NCBI GenBank assembly: GCA_965369865.1
Contig: CBDURU010000004.1
Span: 7,201 to 71,200 of the forward strand
Length of the DNA: 64,000 nucleotides
Direction of reading: 5' to 3'
From: an uncultured bacterium
GTDB lineage: Bacteria; JAJVIF01; JAPKYR01
Shown: in pieces, positions 3,283-42,632 of the stretch
Layout: each line of letters begins with the position of its first letter
How positions within the stretch are numbered: the first letter of the stretch is position 1
Position numbers and translations under genes: made by a program
Notes under the pieces: generated by a model
Seen by the model: the letters and a program-made list of their open reading frames with translations, nothing else
Told to the model about the DNA's origin: nothing
The model's database searches: none

Positions 3283-3440
3283 ATACCAATCTTAGATTCA
3301 GGGACGCCTTTCCATGCTTCCAGCGTTGAAGGTGTCCCGTGTAACTAAGAATTCATGGGGACACTTTCAACGCTGGAAGCATGGAAAAGCGTCCCCATGA
3401 ATTCTGGAAGCATGAAAAAGCGTCCCCATGAATTCAAAGC
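3283..3440. repeat. Dispersed intergenic repeat, expanded copy A, with a 37 bp inverted repeat (long hairpin) and a 32 bp tandem duplication
   Basis: The 33-mer TACCAATCTTAGATTCAGGGACGCCTTTCCATG and the 12-mer AATTCAAAGCGT flank about 115 bp of internal sequence here. The same two segments abut directly at 39413-39462. The insert contains GGACGCCTTTCCATGCTTCCAGCGTTGAAGGTGTCCC and its near-perfect reverse complement, plus two copies of CTGGAAGCATG(G/A)AAAAGCGTCCCCATGAATTC. Confidence 0.6.
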
Positions 3441-13843: not shown

Positions 13844-14012
13844 GGTTCTTTATGGGATAAAGGATAGCACAATTTCCAACCTGGTGGCATACGATAAACG
13901 TGCAACGAATCCTGCGCATGATTGCGTTGTAGTGTTGCCGTTGCCCATGGAATTTTTTTTTGATTTTTTCGTTTCTCCGCAACAGTCAACAGTCTTTAAT
14001 AGTACGTGTTTG

Positions 14013-14282
14013 ACGTTTGATAATTTTCTAAAATTGTTAGCAGGCTGCTTTGTGGTCATCTATGCTGAAAGGGAAATACGTCCGGCGGTCGTGATGCGGA
14101 AGGTTATCCTGCAAAACCGCTCCAATAAAGGCGCGCATACGCAGGAGGTTTTGATGACTGTTTTCAGAACTTTGAAACTCCGCGGTCACGACCCGATCAA
14201 GACAGTCGTCTCAGCGCTGACGGATTACCTGATCACCGGCAAATTGACACCATTATCTGAATTATTTGACACAGATGGGTAA
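14013..14282 (+). pseudogene. IS66-family transposase C-terminal remnant
   Basis: The translated tail (...FDNF...AEREIRPAVVMRKVILQNRSNKGAHTQEVLMTVFRTLKLRGHDPIKTVVSALTDYL) follows the conserved IS66 TnpC C-terminal pattern (IDNN.AERAIRP..GRKNWLF.GS..G.....YSLI.T.KLNG.DP..YL..VL). No upstream transposase body is present; the fragment abuts the NtrC gene. Confidence 0.5.
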
Positions 14283-14436
14283 AGTGTTACTATAGGAAAT
14301 ACATAACCTGTCCCTGTATTTCTTTGCTAAACGCATGTATACTCCTTTGAGCATTTCTTGAGGAGACCACCCATGAAATGCCCCATGCTCTTGATTTTGT
14401 TATCATTTAAAACCACAGGCGTGAAGTATTAAAAAA

Positions 14437-15315
14437 ATGGCTGAAAACATTCGCAAATTTGAAAAAGATGGTCATCGAATTTATCATGGTGATGCCACAG
14501 TAGTTCTTAGGACTGAGATTGCATCTGATTCCATTGACTTGATCTTTCTTGATCCACCCTACAATATAGGAAAGCAATTTGCTGGGTTTCATGATAAATG
14601 GCCATCAGATAAATCCTATGCGGAATGGGCCTATGAGTGGTTGGATGAATGTATCAGAATTTTGAAGCCCAATGGTTCTTTATATGCAATGACGAGCACT
14701 CAGGCCATGCCATATTTCGATCTCTATCTGAGAGATAAATTGACAGTAATTAGCAGGATAGTTTGGCATTATGATAGTTCCGGTGTTCAAGCTAAAAGAA
14801 CATTCGGCTCACTCTACGAACCCATCCTTCATGGTGTTAAAAATCCGAAGCAATACATTTTTAATTCGGATGCAATTAAAATTGAAGCCAAAACAGGCGC
14901 ACAGCGGAAATTAATCGATTACAGGAAAGAAGTACCAACCCAATATAATACTGAGAAAGTTCCAGGCAATGTTTGGTATTTTCCTCGCGTCAGGTATCGC
15001 ATGGATGAGTACGAGAACCATCCTTCTCAGAAACCAGAAGCTTTGCTGAAAAGAATTATCCTTGCAAGCAGCAACGAAAACGGCATTGTGCTTGATCCGT
15101 TTGCAGGAACTTTTACTACCGGTGCAGTATCACGTTTATTAAATCGAAAATCTATTAGCGTGGAGTCACAAGAAGAGTACTTAATGATTGGATTGCGAAG
15201 AGTACTTAAATTGAATTCCTATAAAGATGAAGCCCTTAAATCTCCAGTAAAAGACTATTCCAAAAAGAAAACAGAAAATGAGTTGACGGGAGGCTTGTTC
15301 AATGCCATCAGTTAA
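14437..15315 (+). CDS. DNA methyltransferase, beta class (N6-adenine or N4-cytosine), the R-M modification subunit
   Basis: 292 aa. Motif IV (DPPYN) precedes motif I (LDPFAGTFTTG), the beta-class order. The gene is AT-rich relative to its neighbours. Confidence 0.85.
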   Translation: MAENIRKFEKDGHRIYHGDATVVLRTEIASDSIDLIFLDPPYNIGKQFAGFHDKWPSDKSYAEWAYEWLDECIRILKPNGSLYAMTSTQAMPYFDLYLRDKLTVISRIVWHYDSSGVQAKRTFGSLYEPILHGVKNPKQYIFNSDAIKIEAKTGAQRKLIDYRKEVPTQYNTEKVPGNVWYFPRVRYRMDEYENHPSQKPEALLKRIILASSNENGIVLDPFAGTFTTGAVSRLLNRKSISVESQEEYLMIGLRRVLKLNSYKDEALKSPVKDYSKKKTENELTGGLFNAIS

Positions 15316-16450
15316 ACATGATTTTACACAGACAATTATCCGTATCTTAGAAGAGCATTTCCCAGGTCATGGTGAGCAGTTACTAGATAACAGCGAACTG
15401 CTACAGTACATAAACATAAAGGCAAAGGCGGCTAATCGTGGATCGAAATCAAGAAGCGGCTTTGCCAATCACTATGCTATATATGTGCTGATCGAAGATT
15501 ATTTAAATCATGGATTTAATGAGAGTGACGACTACACTAAATATGAGGGAGCGCAATATAGCAGACTCTTAAACCGACAACGTGAACTTCCGTTTGGCAG
15601 CAAGCTGCAGAATCATGCCCTAAATCATAGGTTAAACGAAGAATTTCATAAATATTTCCCCACTTCTACTCATGTAATAATAATTAGAGACGTTGAAACC
15701 AGTCGCTATTGGATTAATGAAAAATTGCTGCAAGTGAAACTTGGGAAAACTGTTTATAAAATAGCACCGGCCGTTAAAGCAATTATTGATGCCTATATCG
15801 AAGCAAGGTCTAGGTCCTTCGATGAATTTATGGGTTACTGCGAAGAGATAATGAAATTAGAGAAAGATGACGCCGATAAAGCCATTGAATTTGTCAAAGG
15901 GTTATTGAAACCAAATATCGATGCGCGTATTTTTGAAATAGTCAGTTATGCAATATTGAGGGAATTTTATTCTGACCAGAAAATATATTGGGGCTGGTCA
16001 CCGGATGAAATTAATCCTGAATTCTTGGTCTTATACAAGACAGGCAGGACTAATGCTAATGATGGCGGAATCGATTTTGTGATGAAGCCTCTGGGGCGTT
16101 TTTTTCAGGTAACTGAAACAGTTGATGCAGGCAAGTATTTTCTTGATATTGATAAGGTTCAAAGATACCCGATTACTTTTGTCGTAAAAACCGAGCAGTC
16201 TGTCGAAGAAATTAAAAATAAAATCAAGGAGCAAGCTATTGAAAAATACGGGATAGTCGCTATCGTTGAGAAGTATATGACTTCGGTTGAGGAAGTAATT
16301 AATATAGCAGAGCTCATGTTAAGATTTGACGAAGTATTGAAAAATAATAAACTGCATGTGACTATTGAGGAAATTATTCTCCAGAGCAAAGTTGAATTTA
16401 ATATTGATATTGAAGATGATAGCTTGGAGGATGAATCTGAAGATCAATAG
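15302..16450 (+). CDS. Putative type II restriction endonuclease with a PD-(D/E)xK Mrr-like catalytic region
   Basis: 382 aa. It overlaps the methyltransferase by 14 nt on the same strand and is AT-rich. The C-terminal segment (TGRTNANDGGIDFVMKP...FFQVTETVDAGK) resembles the Mrr_cat signature. Confidence 0.5.
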   Translation: MPSVKHDFTQTIIRILEEHFPGHGEQLLDNSELLQYINIKAKAANRGSKSRSGFANHYAIYVLIEDYLNHGFNESDDYTKYEGAQYSRLLNRQRELPFGSKLQNHALNHRLNEEFHKYFPTSTHVIIIRDVETSRYWINEKLLQVKLGKTVYKIAPAVKAIIDAYIEARSRSFDEFMGYCEEIMKLEKDDADKAIEFVKGLLKPNIDARIFEIVSYAILREFYSDQKIYWGWSPDEINPEFLVLYKTGRTNANDGGIDFVMKPLGRFFQVTETVDAGKYFLDIDKVQRYPITFVVKTEQSVEEIKNKIKEQAIEKYGIVAIVEKYMTSVEEVINIAELMLRFDEVLKNNKLHVTIEEIILQSKVEFNIDIEDDSLEDESEDQ

Positions 16451-31920: not shown

Positions 31921-32583
31921 ATGGATAATTTTAATGGAAATCACGACAGTCCTTCCCCAACCGAAAAACCTACAGTAGAAAAACAAAGCCCACCACCAGA
32001 TTTTATAGAATTTTACAGGAATATTCCGAATGAAAATCTTAAGAAAATATTCTTGGGGGCAATCCTAGTCCTGTATTCAAAGAACGATGATAAAATTGCT
32101 TTGGCTTCACATGGTTTTAGGGAGTTCATGGACCATTTCCCTGGAGAAATGGGAAAAATTCCTTATCAATCAATAACTGACACAATTGAAGAAATTAAGA
32201 AACCAGTAAAATCATGGAAGAAATTAGGAGGAGAAACAACTAAAGAAAAAGTACTAGAATCAATGGTAGATTATTTAAATTTTTTAAATATATGGAAGGC
32301 TTTTTATAAATGGTTTGAAGGTGGATATATTGCTCAAACTGATCGATGGATCCAAGCAAGTATTAATATTGATCCATCATTGGAAGAAGTTCCGGATGAT
32401 TACCACGACAGCCAAATCAAACAAATCGTAAAATTAAAAAAATTTTTTATAGATGCGCTCCATCATAAGAAGGACCCAAGTTTTGATGAAATGATCAAAT
32501 ATATCCGATGGTTAACACGACTCTACAAACTTTTACTACAAGCAAAAAAAAATAATCTAGATAAAGAAGAAGGTGCAATATAA
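31921..32583 (+). CDS. Hypothetical Lys-rich protein, first gene of the AT-rich two-gene island
   Basis: 220 aa with no recognisable motif. Its TAA stop overlaps the ATG of the next gene (TAATG). It is strongly AT-rich relative to flanking genes. Confidence 0.5.
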   Translation: MDNFNGNHDSPSPTEKPTVEKQSPPPDFIEFYRNIPNENLKKIFLGAILVLYSKNDDKIALASHGFREFMDHFPGEMGKIPYQSITDTIEEIKKPVKSWKKLGGETTKEKVLESMVDYLNFLNIWKAFYKWFEGGYIAQTDRWIQASINIDPSLEEVPDDYHDSQIKQIVKLKKFFIDALHHKKDPSFDEMIKYIRWLTRLYKLLLQAKKNNLDKEEGAI

Positions 32584-35366
32584 TGCCTTCAAGCAAGGAT
32601 ATTTTTAAGCAAATATCTCAGCTCAATACAGACGCTGAGAAAGCATTTTTTGTGAATCAAATTTCAACGCCCGAATATTTACCTGTGCTGAGGGATCTAG
32701 GATTTTTTTCCACTCCACCCTTACCTATTAAAGATGATAAAGGCGTTAAATTTGAATTATGGTATGCATCTCGCTATCTCTTAAGAATTGCTGATAAAGC
32801 GCCTGCAGAGGTTATGGCGGTAGCGAAGGAAATTCCAGAAACTGAAAATTTTCGAGTACACGAGGATATTCTCGATATTTTAATCAAGATTCCAATCACA
32901 TTTGCCCTTGAATTTCTAACAATAGACAAAGCAAAATATTTCCTTGAGAATCCATACAATTATCAAGCTCCTGATAAGATATCTGAAATTATCAGGGGGG
33001 CCGCCCTTGCAAATCACCCTGATGAAGCTCTCAATCTTGCTGAGTTAGTATTTGTAATTACCTGGCAATCTAAATTTTCAGAATTTGACGGTGAGGAGGT
33101 TGATATTGGGAATTTATTTCCTAAATTCTTTAGATCTGGAGGAAGTTATGATTTTGAAAAACAAATTCGTGCATGCAGGATTCCCCTTATTGATTGTGCC
33201 GGATTTAAAGCTGTCAGGTTCTTTCTGGATTTACTCAGCAAAGCAATCTCTATTTCAAAAAACAAAGGCAAAACAGAATACTCGTGGGTATGGCTTCCAG
33301 CAATTGAGGAGCACGAGCAGAACGCAAGTTCAGGACTCGAAGCTGTTCTTGCAGCAAATGCAAGAGATACACTTGAGTATGTTTTCGAAATAAACCCAGT
33401 TTGGTTAGATAAAGCCCGTGAATTGCTGAGCAGATATAAGCACATTATTTTTAAGAGATTGGATTTACACATTCTAAGGCTTTTCGCTGAACAGAATAAA
33501 GCGGATGTAGTTAATCGACTTCTGGATAAGGAATTATTTAAAAATCCAGCTTGTTATCACGAGTACACACTTCTATTACATGAGCAGTATTCTAATCTCA
33601 AACCTGTGAACCAAAACAAGTTTCTCAATTTCATTGCTGAAATTGAAGGGGATTATATAGAATCTACTCAGTTTAAATGGTTGGATTTAATTAAGAATCA
33701 CCTGAAAAATAATTGGTTAAAAAAATATAAAACGTTGCAGCAAAAATATGGAGACCCTCCTTTCCCGACTTTTCTAAGTTATACAGAATCCGGACCTTGG
33801 TCAGGTCCAACTAGTCCTCTTGAAGATTTGTCCTCAATGACAGTAAAAGAAATTACTGATTTCCTTCAAACATGGAAACCTAGTGGTGAGAGGACATGGC
33901 CTCCTGAGCCATCTGCAGTAGGGTTGGGAAGGCAGCTAAAGAATGAAATTGTAGAACAACCCGTAAAATTTGCTAAAAATGCTGCAATGTTTATAGGTGT
34001 GAACCCAAAATTCCTTATACATGTCTTTTTTGGATTTCAGAATGCTGTCAAGGGCCAGGAAAAATTTGAGTGGGATAGCATCCTGGAGCTTTGCCTGACG
34101 ATAGCGAAGGGAGATTCTGGTAATTTACTTTCGGATGCAAGCACCTTATCTGAAGCCCGAAAACATGCGGCTGGCCTTTTAAAAGAAGGATTCAACAAAG
34201 GTGTGAATGAGATCCCATATAAATACAAAAAAATATCCTGGGATATCCTTGTACACCTAGCAAAAGATCCTGATCCATCACCATCTGATGAGCAAGGCTC
34301 TGGAATGGGTCCATCTCTGCAAGCCATTAACTCAGCTCGCGGCACAGCGATTGAAGCAGTAATCCTTTATGGTATTTGGCACTGGCGCAATCTCCAGGAA
34401 GTGGATAAATGGCGAGGTGTTGAATCAATACCTGAAGTTAGAGAATTACTTGAATCTCATCTCGATCCCAAAATTGACCCCTCACCCGCAATTCGCTCTG
34501 TATATGGTATATATTTCCCCTGGTTCGAAGGAATGGACAATGCCTGGGCTAAGAAAGTTGTAGATATAATATTTCCATTGGATAAAGATCAGGTACTTTT
34601 CAATGCTGCATGGGAAACATATATTTCATACAACCATGTTTATAATAATGCAGCAATGATTTTAACAACTCGGTATGAAAAGGCAATTAGGAACCTTGAA
34701 GTATTTGATAAAGATAATGTCACAATAGGTGACCCTGAAGCAAGGCTCGCAGAACACATGATAGTCATGTACGAACGAGACTTGATAGGCGAACCAGACG
34801 GAGACAGCCTATTCAAATTGTTTTGGGATTATGCACCTCTCTCTGTAAGAAAGCACGCTATTTCCTCAACAGGGATTTCTCTAAGCAATACAGAAGGTGA
34901 AGTTCCAGAACAAATAAGAGAAAAATTAATCAATCTAATCAAATTCAGGATTGGAGTATTAAAGGATAAACCACTCAATGACCGGTTTGAATTAACAGGT
35001 TTTCAGGAATGGTTTAACAGTGAGAAATTCGATATGAGTTGGGCGATTGCCAGTTTGTTAAAAATTCTAGAACTTACTGAAGGTCAACTTGAGCATGGAT
35101 GGGTAACTGTAAAAAAATTGGTTGAAATCGCAGACCAATATCCTGAGCAAGTAATTAAATGTCTTTCATTAATCCTCCTCAATGATACAAGTGGATGGGT
35201 AGTTATGGGTTCTGGAAGGGAAGTAGTCCCAGCATTATTAGAGATAAAAAATAAATCTTCGGAAATAAAGCAGCTTGTAGAAGAACTTGGTGAAAGTCTG
35301 TTTCAGCAAAAGAGATTTGAGTATGCAGATCTTATGGATAAGAGTAAACTAATAATCCCTGACTAA
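32583..35366 (+). CDS. Large hypothetical alpha-helical protein (927 aa), second gene of the AT-rich island
   Basis: Long uninterrupted ORF, AT-rich, with helical-repeat-like composition. No P-loop, nuclease or other catalytic signature was recognised. Confidence 0.5.
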   Translation: MPSSKDIFKQISQLNTDAEKAFFVNQISTPEYLPVLRDLGFFSTPPLPIKDDKGVKFELWYASRYLLRIADKAPAEVMAVAKEIPETENFRVHEDILDILIKIPITFALEFLTIDKAKYFLENPYNYQAPDKISEIIRGAALANHPDEALNLAELVFVITWQSKFSEFDGEEVDIGNLFPKFFRSGGSYDFEKQIRACRIPLIDCAGFKAVRFFLDLLSKAISISKNKGKTEYSWVWLPAIEEHEQNASSGLEAVLAANARDTLEYVFEINPVWLDKARELLSRYKHIIFKRLDLHILRLFAEQNKADVVNRLLDKELFKNPACYHEYTLLLHEQYSNLKPVNQNKFLNFIAEIEGDYIESTQFKWLDLIKNHLKNNWLKKYKTLQQKYGDPPFPTFLSYTESGPWSGPTSPLEDLSSMTVKEITDFLQTWKPSGERTWPPEPSAVGLGRQLKNEIVEQPVKFAKNAAMFIGVNPKFLIHVFFGFQNAVKGQEKFEWDSILELCLTIAKGDSGNLLSDASTLSEARKHAAGLLKEGFNKGVNEIPYKYKKISWDILVHLAKDPDPSPSDEQGSGMGPSLQAINSARGTAIEAVILYGIWHWRNLQEVDKWRGVESIPEVRELLESHLDPKIDPSPAIRSVYGIYFPWFEGMDNAWAKKVVDIIFPLDKDQVLFNAAWETYISYNHVYNNAAMILTTRYEKAIRNLEVFDKDNVTIGDPEARLAEHMIVMYERDLIGEPDGDSLFKLFWDYAPLSVRKHAISSTGISLSNTEGEVPEQIREKLINLIKFRIGVLKDKPLNDRFELTGFQEWFNSEKFDMSWAIASLLKILELTEGQLEHGWVTVKKLVEIADQYPEQVIKCLSLILLNDTSGWVVMGSGREVVPALLEIKNKSSEIKQLVEELGESLFQQKRFEYADLMDKSKLIIPD

Positions 35367-35400
35367 ACTGACTGAAATAAGGAAGAATTCCTATACCTTT

Positions 35401-36120
35401 CTAACTCAACTCAAACACCAGTGTTATTGACATCGACAAAGTTTCTCGTTCTGTCTCAGGGGGGATTGGATCGAATGGAGCCGCGTTACGGACCGCATTG
35501 ATCGCCGCACTGTCAAGACGATCGAATCCAGACGATGCCGATATCGAAACCGAGGATAATTCCCCGTTGGACGCGACCATAAAATTTATAGTCGCTGTGC
35601 CTGTTTCGCCCAAACGCCGGCTGACCTGAGGGAATTCCTTAGCCGCCTGAATTTTGCTCTTAACCGAAGCGGCATAATCGGCAAGCAATGTATCAATATC
35701 GATTTCAGGTTCCGGTTCAGGAGGTGTTATAGGAATTTCGTCCGAAGAACCATCAATTTCTTCGACGGACACCTGTTCATTTTCCAAATCACCGTTTTGC
35801 ACATCATTTTCTGAAGATTCATCACCGACAGCTTCAGCTTCTATCTCTGTTGCTACCACTTCGGTAACTTCTGTAACTTGATTAACCGGTTCGGGTTCAG
35901 GCTGCGATTGCTCTCGTACCGGCTCTCTTACTGGTTCAGGAGGGATTTCCGGCTCTGGCACTATTGCCGAAGGTTCTGGCTCATTGAGAGTTATCAGAAT
36001 TTCGGTAGTGACCGGTATATTCAGCGTGTCCGGGAGTTTCACCGAAAACAAGAGAATTATGTGCACAAGGATCGAAACAACCAGCAGAACCCATCGCCAA
36101 TTTTTAAACAGTCCAGTCAT
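35401..36120 (-). CDS. tonB: TonB-family energy transducer
   Basis: 239 aa. An N-terminal TM anchor is followed by a Pro/Glu-rich spacer (EPEIPPEPVREPVREQSQPEPEP) and a C-terminal TonB domain. It lies downstream of exbB-exbD. Confidence 0.7.
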   Translation of the reverse strand: MTGLFKNWRWVLLVVSILVHIILLFSVKLPDTLNIPVTTEILITLNEPEPSAIVPEPEIPPEPVREPVREQSQPEPEPVNQVTEVTEVVATEIEAEAVGDESSENDVQNGDLENEQVSVEEIDGSSDEIPITPPEPEPEIDIDTLLADYAASVKSKIQAAKEFPQVSRRLGETGTATINFMVASNGELSSVSISASSGFDRLDSAAINAVRNAAPFDPIPPETERETLSMSITLVFELS

Positions 36121-38807: not shown

Positions 38808-39104
38808 TCAGGTATCATCTAAAATTTCCGCGACAGATTTTACCTTGCCTTTAAGCATGCCTTCCGCCCCTGCCTTGTCATCAATCCAGATTTTAATGCT
38901 CACCCTCCCGGAATCCTTCCGCATCTCCAGACGGCACCGGTTAATTACATCCATAACCTCATCCCAGTCGCCTTCAATTAATGTGGACATCGCTGTTAAC
39001 TCAAAGGGCAGTCCCGATTTCTTAATAATTTTCAGGGATTTCGCCACAATATGAGAAAAGTGGGGTCCTTTGTCGAGTGGGATCATTGCGAAAGAAACGA
39101 GCAT
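38808..39104 (-). CDS. MTH1187/YkoF-family (DUF77) small protein, a putative thiamine/HMP-binding fold
   Basis: About 98 aa from the internal Met; the listed ORF extends to 39170. It shows the MxVSFxxIPLDKG...H....V...L pattern of the UPF0045/MTH1187 family. Confidence 0.55.
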   Translation of the reverse strand: MLVSFAMIPLDKGPHFSHIVAKSLKIIKKSGLPFELTAMSTLIEGDWDEVMDVINRCRLEMRKDSGRVSIKIWIDDKAGAEGMLKGKVKSVAEILDDT

Positions 39105-39361
39105 TTGTACGGTCCTCCGAAATCCAGAATTCAAAATAAATCGCAATTGAGTATACCTTATCCGTGGCATCTGATGTTAAAAGGGCTCGTTAAGGCAGAA
39201 GGAAGGACGTAGATTCCGGGACACCTCAAATCGCACACATTTGATGGTGTCCCGGTTTCGATCTCCAATCCGTTTAAAGCCCTAGACTGACTGGATATGT
39301 CCATCAGTCGGGAGAACCTGAATCTGAATTTGAAAAGTCCATCCTGTATATACTTAATGCA

Positions 39362-39400
39362 AAGCCCCCGGTTCCCACAACCGGGGGTGATTTTTTTCTT
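39362..39400 (+). terminator. Rho-independent terminator on the plus strand, with a T-run only on the plus side
   Basis: AAAGCCCCCGGTT-CCCAC-AACCGGGGGTGA is followed by TTTTTTT. Upstream at 39181-39285 there is a 16 bp near-perfect hairpin (CCGGGACACCTCAAAT...ATTTGATGGTGTCCCGG) enclosed by the closing stem AGGGCT/AGCCCT. Confidence 0.5.
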
Positions 39401-39412
39401 CCCATAATGAGT

Positions 39413-39462
39413 AATACCAATCTTAGATTCAGGGACGCCTTTCCATGAATTCAAAGCGTGTA
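39413..39462. repeat. Dispersed intergenic repeat, compact copy B
   Basis: TACCAATCTTAGATTCAGGGACGCCTTTCCATGAATTCAAAGCGT matches the two ends of the element at 3283-3440 but lacks the internal inverted-repeat insert. Confidence 0.6.
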
Positions 39463-39829
39463 AGGCCAATGCCGTTAAATAAAAATTGATAGGACATATT
39501 TAGTATTGATGTACGTCGTACACTTACATTTGGGAATGATTCAGGATTTTTTTGAAGATCGGGGACACCTGCTTTTCGACGGGCGAAAAGAGATGTCCCC
39601 AGTATTAGCAGACGAACTCAGGCTTGCGGGATGGAGATGTCTCACTCGGCTTGCCGACGCCACGCGATTAGGCCGCCGCCATGCGTTTATAATTCTACGG
39701 TCGTTAAAATTACCCTTGTATCACCGTCACCATTCGGGTATGTTTTAGAATTATTGTTTGGATAGTTTTGTAAGTCATTGGCCTCCCCCCCTTAATCCCC
39801 CCCGCAAGCGGTGGGGAGGTATGGTGTTT

Positions 39830-39985
39830 GTCCTTTAATTGTAACGCAGGCAGCTTGCCTGCAGTACCGCGGACAGCTTGTCCTTTAATTGTAACGCAGG
39901 CAGCTTGCCTCCAGTACCGCGGACAGCTTGTCCTTAAATTGTAACGCAGGCAGCTTGCCTGCAGTACCGCGGACAGCTTGTCCGC
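39830..39985. repeat. Three tandem 50 bp direct repeats, each carrying two short hairpins, abutting the alaS start
   Basis: Unit GTCCTTTAATTGTAACGCAGGCAGCTTGCCTGCAGTACCGCGGACAGCTT repeats three times with 2 mismatches in total. Each unit carries hairpins GCAGGCA-GCT-TGCCTGC and GGACA-GCT-TGTCC. A GC-rich inverted repeat (CCTCCCC...GGGGAGG) precedes the array at 39783-39818. Confidence 0.85.
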
Positions 39986-42632
39986 ATCAAAGGAACTAAA
40001 AGTGGAAACATCCAGGCTCAGATCGCTTTTCCTCGACTTCTTCAAGTCAAAGGATCACCACATAGAACCGTCCGCAAGCCTTGTCCCCTCAGCGGATGAT
40101 AAATCGCTTCTGTTAATCAACGCGGGAATGGCGCCGCTCAAGCCTTACTTCACCGGATTGCAGGCACCCCCGTCCACACGTATCGCTTCGTGCCAGCGAT
40201 GTCTTCGCACAAATGACATTGATGAGGTCGGTCGAACACCCCGTCATCTGACCATGTTTGAAATGCTCGGTAATTTCTCCTTCGGCGATTATTTCAAAGA
40301 GGAGATAATCATATGGAGCTGGGAATTTATCACGGACTGGTTGAAAATCCCGGTCGAGAAGCTCAGGATCAGCGTTCACGAAAAAGACGATGAGGCTTTT
40401 TCAATCTGGGAAAAGGAGGTCGGTGTTCGCTCGGACTGGATTTACCGGCTAGGCGACGAGGATAACTTCTGGTTCATGGCCGACACAGGTCCATGCGGGC
40501 CTGACAGTGAAATTTTCTATGACATTGGCGAGGAACTTGGTCCCGACCAGACACCCGCTAAAGATGGGGATCGATGGGTGGAAATCTGGAACCTGGTTTT
40601 TACGCAGTTTGACCGCCAGGCCGACGGAACTCTCGTGCCACTGCCGAAAAAAAATGTCGACACGGGAATGGGTCTTGAAAGAACAGCGATGGCATTGCAG
40701 GGAAAACATTCCGTGTTTGAAGTGGATATATTCAAGCCAATTTCAGACTTTTATAAAACCGAGACTAAAAAGGAAATTCTCGAATCCGAAAGTTATATTT
40801 CGGCTGGTGTTAACTCGCTGTATGTGGTGTCGGACCACATCCGGGCGGTCTCGATGCTCCTCGCGGACGGAGTGCACCCGGGGAACGAGGGCAGGGGTTA
40901 TATACTCCGGAGAATCCTTCGACGGGCGCTTGTCCATTTGCGCCGCCTTGGCCGGCATGAAGGCGGACTTATTAAAGCGTTCCCGATTGTACTCGATCAG
41001 CTTGGGGAAACATATCCACTTTTACTTGAGCGCAGAGACCACATCGCAAATTTAATCCGGCACGAGGAGCAGAATTTCCTGAAAACCCTCGATGCCGGTG
41101 TCCAGCGATTGGAAAATGCGATAGAGAGTGTCGGGGATGAGAAAATCCTGCCGGGTGAAATAGCATTCGAGATGTTCGACACTTACGGCGTCCCGCTTGA
41201 TGTCACAATCGAAATGGCCCAGGCAAGGGGAATGGAAGTCGATGTGGTCAGCTACACTGACGCACTGGAAACCGCACGGAGGATATCCCGCGAGGTCACG
41301 GATGAGACGCTTGACGCCGATAACGCCGCTCGCCAGGCTGTGAAAACCACCGATGAAACTGAATTCATTGGCTATGATTTCTATCGCGAAACGTCATCTC
41401 TCATTGAATTCGATCCCGCGCACAATTTCATCGTAATCGAAAAAACTCCGTTTTATGCCGAAATGGGTGGTCAGACCGGGGATACGGGCGCACTGCGGTT
41501 TAAGGATGGGGAATTCAAAGTTACCGGCACCCAGATTGTCGGCAATGTTGTCGTCCATAAAATCGATCCCGAAAAGACTACCGGCGATCCATCAAATCTG
41601 AAACCCGGCGATCCAATCGAAGCGATTGTCGATATCGATAGAAGGCTTGGAATCCAGAGAGCGCATACCGGGACTCATCTACTTCATGCAGCCTTAAGGG
41701 TTGTCCTTGGCGATCATGTGCAGCAGGCGGGATCGGCGGTCGAGCCGGATCGATTCCGCTTCGATTTCACCCATTTCCAACCGCTTACAAGGGAGGAAAC
41801 CCGAAAAATAGAGGACTGGGCGAACGAGCGGGTATTCGCGGAACATGACGTGTTTACCAGGGATGTTTCGTACGATGATGCGATCGAGGCAGGCGCGATT
41901 GCATTGTTCGGCGAAAAATATCCCGAAACTGTCCGGATGGTCTGGATCGGCGGACGTGAGACTGAGCCAGTTCCAGGGCAGGTTCAATCGACCGAGCTTT
42001 GCGGCGGCACGCATGTAAAAAACACAGGTGTCATCGGGCTGATAAAAATTGTTGGGGAGGAATCGATAGCAAGCGGCGTACGGCGGATCGAGGTTTTGAC
42101 GGGTCGTCGATCGTACGAATTTATGCAGGATGAGGACATGACACTTCATCATATTTCAGACGCGATGCACATGCCCATCCAGCACCTCGAACGCGGGGTC
42201 CGGAAGCATCTCGAAATACAGAAACGCCTGGAGAGGGAAGTCAGGGATCTCGAATCGAAGCTGATTTCAGGTGAGGGCGGCGGAGCGTTCGAAGATTTCA
42301 CATCGGGTGACATTAAAGCCAGGATATACCCGTTACAATCTCTCGCGCCCGATGCGGTCGCGAAATTGCTCGATAAAGCAGTGGAGGAGGATCGGGTTCA
42401 CATCGCGTTCGCTGTCACCGACCATGATGGCAAGGGAACGTTGATGATCCGTTGTTCCGACGAAGCGATAAAAGCCGGACTGCATGCGGGGAATTTCGTG
42501 AAGAAGGTCGCGGGTGCCATGGGGGGCCGTGGTGGAGGAAAGCCGTCATTCGCCCGTGGCGGCGTGGACGCATCCCGCTACGAAGAAGGTTCTCTGGCAT
42601 ACCGCGATGTTTTAACAGGCGGAATTAACTGA
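39978..42632 (+). CDS. alaS: Alanine--tRNA ligase
   Basis: 884 aa. Class II catalytic motifs are near the N-terminus (FLDFFKSKDH, LLLINAGMAPLKPYF). The editing domain has HTGTHLLH and a zinc site (CGGTHV), and the C-terminal DHHA1-like domain is present. The listed start is TTG at 39978 inside the last tandem repeat; GTG at 40002 is an equally plausible start. Confidence 0.9.
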   Translation: MSASKELKVETSRLRSLFLDFFKSKDHHIEPSASLVPSADDKSLLLINAGMAPLKPYFTGLQAPPSTRIASCQRCLRTNDIDEVGRTPRHLTMFEMLGNFSFGDYFKEEIIIWSWEFITDWLKIPVEKLRISVHEKDDEAFSIWEKEVGVRSDWIYRLGDEDNFWFMADTGPCGPDSEIFYDIGEELGPDQTPAKDGDRWVEIWNLVFTQFDRQADGTLVPLPKKNVDTGMGLERTAMALQGKHSVFEVDIFKPISDFYKTETKKEILESESYISAGVNSLYVVSDHIRAVSMLLADGVHPGNEGRGYILRRILRRALVHLRRLGRHEGGLIKAFPIVLDQLGETYPLLLERRDHIANLIRHEEQNFLKTLDAGVQRLENAIESVGDEKILPGEIAFEMFDTYGVPLDVTIEMAQARGMEVDVVSYTDALETARRISREVTDETLDADNAARQAVKTTDETEFIGYDFYRETSSLIEFDPAHNFIVIEKTPFYAEMGGQTGDTGALRFKDGEFKVTGTQIVGNVVVHKIDPEKTTGDPSNLKPGDPIEAIVDIDRRLGIQRAHTGTHLLHAALRVVLGDHVQQAGSAVEPDRFRFDFTHFQPLTREETRKIEDWANERVFAEHDVFTRDVSYDDAIEAGAIALFGEKYPETVRMVWIGGRETEPVPGQVQSTELCGGTHVKNTGVIGLIKIVGEESIASGVRRIEVLTGRRSYEFMQDEDMTLHHISDAMHMPIQHLERGVRKHLEIQKRLEREVRDLESKLISGEGGGAFEDFTSGDIKARIYPLQSLAPDAVAKLLDKAVEEDRVHIAFAVTDHDGKGTLMIRCSDEAIKAGLHAGNFVKKVAGAMGGRGGGKPSFARGGVDASRYEEGSLAYRDVLTGGIN

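Follow-up and report, generated by a model that had tools for sequence, protein, structure and literature searches.

The alanine--tRNA ligase gene (alaS) of an uncultured Planctomycetota-like bacterium is preceded by head-to-tail copies of a stem-loop that end next to the ribosome-binding site. We analyzed the 64-kb stretch of DNA carrying this gene (hereafter, the window) together with alaS loci of relatives, and conclude that the array is probably a copy-number-variable amplification, of the VNTR or minisatellite type, of a stem-loop of the alaS 5' leader that would act at the RNA level. Repeat anatomy, copy-number variation, stem covariation, restriction to this locus and a conserved promoter motif were observed directly; from these we infer transcription of the array, its action as RNA and any effect on expression.

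Anatomy of the array and of the alaS upstream region

All features described here lie on the + strand of the window. The array (39828 to 39983) comprises 3.1 copies of a 50-bp unit (TRF score 298, 97% matches), equivalent to six hairpin modules of ~25 nt, although a short-read metagenome assembly can miscount an array of 156 bp. Two samples yielded the contig, one of them ERZ23499000. The copies are 98% identical to the reference unit, and the 43-nt core of the unit was matched three times versus zero expected from 100 shuffles. The original prediction of three perfect 50-bp repeats stands as to their head-to-tail order but not as to their perfection, given substitutions at 39911 (G to C, unit 2) and 39936 (T to A, unit 3). 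With mismatches at only two of ~150 positions, the three units are either young or homogenized. Also as predicted, two inverted repeats occur in every unit, i.e., H1 (GCAGGCA-GCT-TGCCTGC, starting at 39846, 39896 and 39946) and H2 (GGACA-GCT-TGTCC, starting at 39871, 39921 and 39971), the latter straddling the unit junctions; the H1 stem of unit 2 is, however, broken by a C.C mismatch arising from the change at 39911. H1 and H2 are diverged copies of a single 17-mer, and the true subunit is thus ~25 nt long. In this basic module, GTAMC precedes a 7-bp stem that closes a 3-nt loop, and each 50-bp unit is made up of two diverged modules.

H1 of unit 1 (39846 to 39862) has a 7-bp stem that can be extended by 3 bp (GTA/TAC, 39841 to 39867) beyond a 2-nt internal loop, with a predicted RNA fold of -12.2 kcal/mol. 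The first junction copy of H2 (39871 to 39883; -5.5 kcal/mol) pairs over 5 bp only before TTTAATT, and was picked up by a terminator scan as a weak terminator-like site; the second (39921 to 39933) has the same stem length and is followed by TTAAATT. The damaged H1 of unit 2 (39896 to 39912; GCAGGCA-GCT-TGCCTCC, C.C at pair 2) folds at -5.6 kcal/mol, no better than shuffles, and H1 of unit 3 (39946 to 39962) retains an intact 7-bp stem. The terminal, Shine-Dalgarno (SD)-proximal H2 (39969 to 39985; GCGGACA-GCT-TGTCCGC) forms a full 7-bp stem 4 nt upstream of the SD sequence (-11.4 kcal/mol, z = -4.3).

alaS itself spans 40002 to 42632 and specifies a protein of 876 aa from a GTG start, identical over its full length to database protein P0001 (100% identity and coverage; Pfam domains tRNA-synt_2c, tRNA_SAD and DHHA1). 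Relatives use the homologous GTG, except for one TTG. The TTG inside unit 3 that had been taken for the start codon (39978) is merely the first in-frame start codon of a mechanically called ORF. The SD sequence AAGGA lies at 39990 to 39994, and an SD-like motif 11 to 15 nt upstream of the start codon is present in 14 of the 15 alaS loci examined (AAGGA in 12, GAGGA in L084, AAGGG in L169, none in L172). Since the coding region begins 19 nt past the array, the repeats are non-coding. Moreover, a period of 50 bp cannot keep a reading frame, and ORFs overlapping the array gave no Pfam match.

A predicted sigma-70-type promoter lies upstream of the array at 39716 to 39744 (-35 TTGTAT, 39716 to 39721; 17-nt spacer; -10 TATGTT, 39739 to 39744), with transcription predicted to start near 39751. 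Of 11 relatives, 10 have a single match to TTGTAT-N17-TATGTT in front of alaS. L170 carries the variant TTGTGA-N17-TATGTT, and in L086, L169 and L172 the match to the pattern is incomplete or absent. The surrounding block (39674 to 39757) is 97 to 99% identical in the relatives L004 and L164, versus 92 to 94% in the coding region. Such a clade-conserved promoter upstream of the array makes it most likely that the repeats are transcribed as part of the alaS 5' leader, in agreement with the leader structure originally proposed. On the same strand, the promoter scan found none inside the repeat units, and the 5-bp junction stem was the only terminator-like match within the array.

Promoter and array are separated by a window-specific stretch of about 72 nt (39756 to 39829), which has no counterpart in alignments with L004, L164 and L167 and is unique in the window. 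It contains a C-rich/G-rich hairpin, CCTCCCCCCC..GGTGGGGAGG (39782 to 39819), and folds no better than shuffled sequence (z = -1.0). A second, unrelated VNTR with a 19-nt unit sits just upstream of the alaS promoter (1.9 copies in the window, 3.7 in L164).

Copy number and constraint among relatives

AlaRS searches identified at least two close relatives in genome contigs and at least three in metagenome contigs. Relatedness at genus level applies to L004 and L164, with 92 to 94% nucleotide identity in alaS, and to L167, whose AlaRS clusters with that of the window at 90% identity. Alignment at the orthologous site counts one hairpin module in L167, two in L164, five in L004 and six in the window, which corresponds to no full, ~1, 2.4 and 3.1 copies, respectively, of the 50-bp unit between the same promoter and SD sequence. 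The variation in array length was observed only between genomes 6 to 8% diverged, and unit-specific substitutions tell the copies apart. Because module number differs among genus-level relatives, the three units represent a recent repeat expansion, as the alternative of a recent tandem duplication had anticipated; this and the leader-structure reading, initially offered as alternatives, are supported together. It had also been held that single units devoid of a conserved palindrome in relatives would speak against a regulatory array. L164 and L167 do carry a single unit, yet the palindrome is conserved there. Altogether, the module occurs at the orthologous site in five independently assembled genomes. 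The fifth, the more distant L002 (AlaRS 80% identical), carries GTAAC plus ACGGGCA-TTC-TGCCCGT as a perfect 25-bp repeat in two copies and has amplified the same module independently. L166 has an unrelated array in its alaS leader (26 nt, 5.7 copies), whose palindrome GGAATATTCC is too short for RNA self-folding.

Constraint is concentrated on the copy closest to the SD sequence. This copy reads GCGGGCA/TGCCCGC in L004, GCGGGCA/TGCCTGC in L164 and GTGGACA/TGTCCGC in L167, is paired at 7 of 7 positions in these three, the window and L002, and keeps a constant gap of 4 nt to the SD sequence in all four genus members, whereas its distance to the promoter can be anything between about 10 and 219 nt (about +11 to about +219 from the predicted transcription start). 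The window and L004 differ in this stem by a compensatory A-U to G-C change. Its only departures from canonical pairing are sense-strand wobbles (U.G in L167, G.U in L164), which fits an RNA rather than a DNA palindrome, an argument of two cells only for a palindrome equally compatible with a dimeric DNA-binding protein. Internal copies show C.C and A.C mismatches and truncated 5-bp stems. Only the SD-proximal copy is always intact, and the internal ones are decaying. Across 12 distinct module copies, 91.7% of stem cells were paired (27 to 43% in slid controls), two-sided changes affected three of the seven pairs, and the covariation score of 0.344 (0.222 for shuffles) was reached by none of 500 shuffles; these counts pool paralogous copies with orthologous ones across five genomes and are not independent events. 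Folding energy of the region does not single out the sense RNA, for its z score (-2.5) is no better than that of the antisense strand (-5.6).

Beyond the genus, L084, L085 and L165 have sequence-unrelated 6- to 7-bp hairpins 0 to 1 nt from the SD sequence. In total, an SD-adjacent hairpin is found in 5 of 12 alaS lineages, compared with 1 of 18 other SD-bearing genes of the window (Fisher p = 0.026). Among the alaS loci examined, none was found in L003, L005, L086, L166, L169, L170 or L172, which renders any function dispensable.

These observations suggest how the array may have arisen and what it might do. The ancestral, selected element would be one ~25-nt module, i.e., GTAMC and a 7-bp stem with a 3-nt loop, placed 4 nt upstream of the SD sequence. 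In the mRNA, such a stem-loop would most likely protect the transcript or shape the structure around the ribosome-binding site. Because the modules resemble one another and are self-complementary, slipped-strand mispairing or unequal recombination is favored as the process by which copies may have been repeatedly added and removed. The window lineage would have first gained a second, since diverged module (H1 plus H2, 50 bp) and then reached three copies of the 50-bp unit. The extra copies would be young and not individually maintained. They would lengthen the leader from ~43 to ~251 nt, introduce weak hairpin-plus-U-tract junctions and permit long alternative duplexes, and might in this way reduce or adjust alaS expression, unless they are neutral.

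The alaS leader of this uncultured clade shows an unusual propensity for tandem amplification, which occurred independently at least three times. If our reading is right, the alleles constitute a natural series in which one, two, five and six stem-loops separate the same promoter from the same ribosome-binding site of an essential gene, and which could be used to measure how leader length and repeated structure influence mRNA stability and translation.

Known element classes and competing explanations

Rfam gave no match at the gathering threshold anywhere in the window, and at E <= 10 the interval 39050 to 40150 produced only chance-level miRNA/sRNA matches, with no T-box and no known leader. 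A T-box riboswitch, the usual leader of aminoacyl-tRNA synthetase genes in Firmicutes, was rejected on the lack of a covariance-model match in the window. The GCU loop spells an Ala codon, but its use as a T-box specifier was rejected as well: in L002 the loops read UUC and UUU, and three loop nucleotides are too few to present a codon. The window contains no tRNA-Ala gene. An attenuator governed by an Ala leader peptide, of the pheM/pheST type, was discarded, as small ORFs in 39745 to 40010 are not Ala-rich and the junction hairpins are weak (-5.5 kcal/mol). These ORFs mostly have no well-spaced SD-like sequence, and none lies in sequence conserved across relatives, which lack these stretches or carry them in other copy numbers; the one starting at TTG 39828 (38 aa) has GGAGG 8 nt upstream, a motif belonging to the window-specific stretch. 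H1 (AGGCAGcttgcCTGCA) matches the sigma-54 consensus TGGCAC-N5-TTGCA at 8 of 12 positions, a resemblance that the palindrome itself yields and that is not shared by H2 or the L002 modules, and it was therefore rejected. We also rejected allele-specific sequestration of the SD sequence. In the window allele it is predicted to pair with an upstream UCCUU (39831 to 39835), which arises at each junction, and in short alleles its pairing with the conserved coding sequence CUUUUCCUC is just as strong. All alleles have a poorly accessible SD sequence by prediction, and short arrays are not told apart from long ones by this measure.

An assembly artifact is hardly credible, and so is a mobile or dispersed element of REP/BIME, MITE or CRISPR-like type, even though the units are repeated and palindrome-bearing and De Bruijn assemblers can miscount short tandem arrays. 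The module is found only at alaS, with no further copy in the 64-kb window, 814 kb of fetched loci or viral contigs, which speaks against REP/BIME and MITE families. The units abut head to tail without spacers, unlike those of a CRISPR array; and the occurrence in five independently assembled genomes, the unit-specific substitutions and the recovery of the contig from two samples argue against an artifact. A wholly neutral minisatellite, in which hairpins and their number have no effect and palindromes persist by driving their own duplication, is unlikely but deserves more weight. It would account for the decay of internal copies, the drift of copy number among relatives, the missing hairpin in many clade members and the 19-nt VNTR upstream of the same promoter, which suggests a locally unstable region. 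It does not account for SD-proximal pairing kept through compensatory and wobble changes in five genomes with AlaRS identities from 80% to at least 90%, for the invariant 4-nt gap in the genus, or for the enrichment of SD-adjacent hairpins at alaS over other genes.

The remaining alternatives give the module a partner, AlaRS itself. According to PMC6918089 (citing Putney & Schimmel 1981), alanine-dependent binding of E. coli AlaRS to DNA near the transcription start autoregulates alaS transcription, and RefSeq labels the E. coli product 'alanine--tRNA ligase/DNA-binding transcriptional repressor'. By analogy, dimeric AlaRS could occupy the 7-3-7 palindromes downstream of the promoter and repress at high alanine, more tightly with more copies. 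Relative to the predicted start, the palindromes extend from about +11 to +27 in L167, a suitable place for a repressor, and from about +96 to about +235 in the window, none overlapping the -10 box or the start; the L166 palindrome that is too short to self-fold as RNA would also fit. Nevertheless, we consider this reading improbable. The conserved copy is fixed to the SD sequence and not to the promoter, lying ~219 nt downstream of the predicted start in the window. Half-sites are not conserved, with compensated changes at three of seven positions and wobbles on the sense strand only; spacings of 23 and 27 bp are out of helical phase; L003, L005 and L166 share the promoter without such a palindrome, which L086, L169 and L172 also lack; and the E. 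coli upstream region is not similar (visual inspection of 127 bp upstream of alaS in K-12, L175, revealed no GGCA-N3-TGCC module and no tandem array). Even more doubtful is an RNA operator at which the 7-bp stem and the A-U-C-A tail mimic the tRNA-Ala acceptor stem so that AlaRS competes with the ribosome, extra copies acting as further binding sites or as decoys. The hairpin lies right against the SD sequence, as does the anticodon-arm mimic of the E. coli thrS operator, its 7-bp stem is followed by an A resembling the A73 discriminator, and the third pair in L164 is the G.U identity element of tRNA-Ala. At this position, however, the window, L004 and L167 have G-C and H1 has A-U, so that the defining G3.U70 is not conserved; besides, the second pair is C-G or U.G instead of G-C, the tail reads AUCA rather than ACCA, and L084, L085 and L165 have hairpins of unrelated sequence next to the SD sequence. 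Taken together, there is only a slim chance that the module is an AlaRS-binding site, as SD-adjacent RNA or as duplex DNA, with module gain and loss resetting an autoregulatory set-point; were this true, the L002 and L166 arrays would be parallel solutions to the same problem. Nothing specific in the data supports an AlaRS operator function of the array, and the analysis reveals neither a new class of element nor evidence of AlaRS autoregulation beyond E. coli. The reading that we favor remains an amplified leader stem-loop.

Comparison with known systems

The E. coli alaS system and the array concern the same gene and share a palindromic sequence near the promoter. In our clade, however, the palindromes follow the predicted start, keep their position relative to the SD sequence and are missing from members that have the same promoter. 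Another E. coli synthetase gene, thrS, has a translational operator in which a tRNA-like stem-loop next to the SD sequence is bound by ThrRS. A stem-loop directly upstream of the SD sequence of an aminoacyl-tRNA synthetase gene is likewise found in the four genus members, but it is one simple 7-bp stem, as opposed to the multi-domain thrS operator, and has no conserved mimicry of tRNA-Ala identity, with G3.U70 only in L164.

A parallel in layout is provided by the 5' untranslated region of Haemophilus influenzae hmw1A and hmw2A, where a transcribed tandem repeat between promoter and start codon forms part of RNA hairpins and repeat number is inversely related to expression (PMC12721329). The hmw tracts have more than 10 units of 7 nt each and undergo phase variation, switching at high frequency within populations, and RNase III processing has been demonstrated (PMC12721329). 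The alaS array would share this position if the conserved predicted promoter is the active one, but it has a 50-nt unit in one to three copies and is seen to vary only between species-level relatives. That unit length sets it apart from simple sequence repeats of phase-variable loci, which have units of 1 to 9 nt and switch at high frequency.

Bacterial intergenic VNTRs and minisatellites, e.g., the 40- to 100-bp MIRU-type tandem repeats used in strain typing, offer the last comparison. Unlike these, the array occupies the leader of an essential housekeeping gene and has units built of stem-loop modules with a structurally constrained SD-proximal copy; judging from 64 kb of the genome, it does not belong to a family dispersed genome-wide. 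What it has in common with VNTRs is that non-coding units, each tens of base pairs long and highly similar to the others, follow one another head to tail, and that close relatives differ in their number at the orthologous locus.

Architecture of the array upstream of alaS

The DNA preceding alaS carries the top-scoring tandem array that TRF finds in the 64 kb, a head-to-tail repeat of 3.1 copies with a period of 50 bp (39828-39983; 97% matches; score 298). When the whole window was searched with the 43-nt unit core, its three matches all fell in the array, against 0 expected from 100 dinucleotide-preserving shuffles. Besides this array, just one tandem repeat of the window scores >100, a 31-bp unit, CTGGAAGCATGAAAAAGCGTCCCCATGAATT, at 3373-3435 (2.0 copies, 96% identical). 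The original prediction of three perfect units holds for the tandem repetition but not for the perfection, as unit 2 carries a G-to-C substitution at 39911 and unit 3 a T-to-A substitution at 39936. Both inverted repeats it described recur in all units, i.e., H1 (GCAGGCA-GCT-TGCCTGC) and, across unit junctions, H2 (GGACA-GCT-TGTCC), whose last copy (39969-39985) has the full 7-bp stem GCGGACA-GCT-TGTCCGC. H1 and H2 represent two divergent forms of one 17-mer, with compensating differences at pairs 3 and 5; the true sub-unit is thus a ~25-nt module, GTAMC followed by a hairpin. The substitution at 39911 places a C.C mismatch in the H1 stem of unit 2, for which folding predicts -5.6 kcal/mol instead of -12.2 kcal/mol. 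The GTAMC of each module resembles the conserved leader start, so the units may derive from a duplicated start-proximal segment. Conservation continues ~18 nt past the -10 hexamer, GGGTATGTTTTAGGATTGTGCGTC (window 39739-39760; alaS leaders of relatives L085, L165, L169, L170, and L003).

The TTG at 39978 inside the third unit, previously taken as the alaS start, is just the first start codon of a mechanical ORF. Database AlaRS P0001 (876 aa) matches the translation from the GTG at 40002 with 100% identity and coverage, and the homologous GTG is the start in relatives (TTG in L005). The coding region therefore begins 19 nt past the array end, and its Shine-Dalgarno sequence (SD), AAGGA, lies at 39990-39994. 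Repetition every 50 bp is incompatible with a maintained reading frame, and Pfam yielded no match for the 111-aa minus-strand ORF across the array or for two nearby ORFs. In L167, L164, L004, and L003, the alaS codons 8-10, CUUUUCCUC (homologous to window 40025-40033), have a predicted probability of 0.6-0.9 of pairing with the AAGGA SD, and this helix may be a conserved, repeat-independent SD-sequestering element. In L164 (1501-3773), alaS is called as two ORFs of 553 and 204 aa with a 4-nt overlap, a sign that the gene is frameshifted, missequenced, or a pseudogene.

We compared alaS upstream regions from 14 further loci representing at least 11 lineages. Among the matches listed, the closest genomes, L004 and L005, are MAGs of uncultured organisms that carry the label Planctomycetota bacterium, and AlaRS identity descends to ~45% for homologs beyond the clade. 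In 10 of the 11 relatives tested, the DNA preceding alaS contains a single TTGTAT-N17-TATGTT; L170 carries a variant of it. This motif is the predicted alaS promoter of the window (39716-39744), in a block that shares 97-99% identity with L004 and L164, compared with only 92-94% for alaS. Its conservation would set the transcription start near 39751 and place the whole array inside a ~251-nt 5' leader, in agreement with the leader structure originally proposed as one option. A plus-strand promoter scan found none inside the array.

A short way upstream of this promoter lies a second, unrelated VNTR with a 19-nt unit, GCCGCCACGCGTTTAGGTC (39653-39689; L164 1052-1121). The window has 1.9 copies of the unit and L164 has 3.7, whereas L004 has ~1 and L167 lacks it; regulators could bind at these successive units, or the tract could be just another unstable repeat. 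At 39199-39395, a plus-strand element of ~200 nt is structured (MFE -77.3 kcal/mol, z = -5.1), and its 3' end is a strong intrinsic terminator, GCCCCCGGTT..AACCGGGGGT plus a T7 run (39364-39395). No Rfam family matches this element, which recurs in L004 (1871-2067; 95% identity) and in L167, where it comes immediately after the stop codon of a large plus-strand ORF. The window lacks that ORF at this position. The element is either what remains of a 3'-UTR and its terminator or a small RNA in its own right. Low-GC islands at 32001-36000 (0.36-0.42; containing a 927-aa ORF, 32583-35366) and 14001-16000 (0.39), versus ~0.48 elsewhere, may be horizontally acquired DNA.

Module number across relatives

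Alignment of leaders from the four genus-level genomes (A1) revealed an identical promoter and SD region separated by a nested module series: one module in L167 (GTGGACA-GCT-TGTCCGC only), two in L164 (H1 and H2), five in L004 (an H2-like module and two 50-bp units), and six in the window (3 x 50 bp, plus ~72 nt). The latter ~72-nt stretch (39756-39829), between promoter and array, corresponds to nothing in L004, L164, or L167; it is single-copy in the window and holds two C7 runs and a G-rich complement, CCTCCCCCCC..GGTGGGGAGG. Such variation within a genus bears out the earlier suggestion of recent tandem duplication. The array is best classed as an intergenic VNTR whose building block is a probable leader stem-loop.

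The more distant L002 (AlaRS 80% identical) shares the module as GTAAC plus ACGGGCA-TTC-TGCCCGT, independently amplified into a perfect 25-bp x 2 repeat after which a third hairpin, CACAGGCA-TTT-TGCCTGTG, adjoins the SD. The leader of L003 (77%) spans ~30 nt and is devoid of hairpins. In L166 (71% AlaRS identity), the 341-nt alaS leader harbors a 26-nt x 5.7 array of unrelated sequence (1207-1352), which is an independent repeat expansion at the same kind of site; a perfect palindrome, GGAATATTCC, occurs in each unit, and a strong hairpin, CCTACAAGC..GCTTGTAGG, follows the array. Within 67 kb of relatives' sequence, alaS leaders make up 1.9% of the bases and hold five of the eight TRF arrays scoring >=75, an enrichment that is weaker if intergenic DNA alone is the baseline. 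The five arrays do not stand for five independent events but for three or more. The alaS leaders of this clade acquire tandem arrays repeatedly.

Several known identities were discarded. Array and leader matched no Rfam family, including T-box, and no Ala-rich peptide was found in the leader. The units lack the spacers of a CRISPR-like array, and restriction of the module to alaS, in the window and 814 kb of collected loci, rejects a dispersed repeat; the viral contigs searched are also free of it. Upstream of E. coli alaS, both the motif and a tandem array are absent.

Probable selection on the SD-proximal stem

In a covariation set of 12 distinct module copies from five genomes, which mixes paralogs and orthologs so that counts overstate independent events, pairing holds in 91.7% of the cells of the 7-bp stem versus 27-43% with 3' partners slid by 1-3 columns, three of the seven pairs change on both sides, and the observed score was reached by none of 500 shuffles. 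More telling than these pooled counts is the contrast between SD-proximal and internal copies. The former retains complete pairing in all five genomes, departs from it only by sense-strand wobbles (U.G in L167, G.U in L164), and differs between the window and L004 by a compensatory A-U to G-C change, whereas internal copies bear C.C and A.C mismatches or 5-bp stems cut by the duplication junction. The terminal hairpin always ends 4 nt upstream of the SD, its distance to the promoter ranging from ~10 to ~219 nt. Unrelated 6-7-bp hairpins adjoin the SD in L084, L085, and L165. Altogether, an SD-adjacent hairpin occurs in 5 of 12 alaS lineages versus 1 of 18 other SD-bearing window genes (Fisher p = 0.026; p = 0.054 when L002 is grouped with the window genus as a single lineage).

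E. coli AlaRS exerts alanine-dependent repression on its own transcription (PMC6918089), and the palindromes had been proposed as an equivalent DNA operator. We found no link between them and AlaRS, and this reading is improbable given that the position of the palindromes relative to the promoter varies, half-site sequence is unconserved, and the element is absent from other clade members that share the promoter. Also of low probability is an RNA operator in which the hairpin adjoining the SD would be a putative acceptor-stem mimic, likened to the thrS operator; a 7-bp stem followed by A and the G.U at pair 3 in L164 fit this idea, but the window, L004, and L167 all have G-C there.

For the SD-adjacent stem-loop as such, we favor an RNA-level action, because the hairpin is anchored to the SD, wobbles are confined to the sense strand, and sequence-unrelated analogous hairpins occur in other lineages. 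The likely role of the hairpin is mRNA stabilization or insulation of the ribosome-binding site.

A probable amplification of the leader hairpin

On balance, we lean toward VNTR-type amplification of an SD-adjacent leader stem-loop, with the SD-proximal copy alone under selection and the extra copies recent. Self-complementary, mutually similar modules would be a substrate for slippage or unequal recombination, which would account for repeated gains and losses and for the independent amplification in L002. Expansion may lengthen the leader, create two weak hairpin-plus-U-tract junctions (-5.5 kcal/mol, predicted), and allow long alternative duplexes. No directional effect of expansion emerged: structure prediction leaves most of the SD paired in all alleles, and antisense folding at least equals sense folding. 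The genus offers a natural allelic series usable experimentally. The long alternative duplexes of the window are comparable to the repeat hairpin in the Haemophilus influenzae hmw 5'-UTR, which is processed by RNase III and where expression is inversely related to repeat number (PMC12721329).
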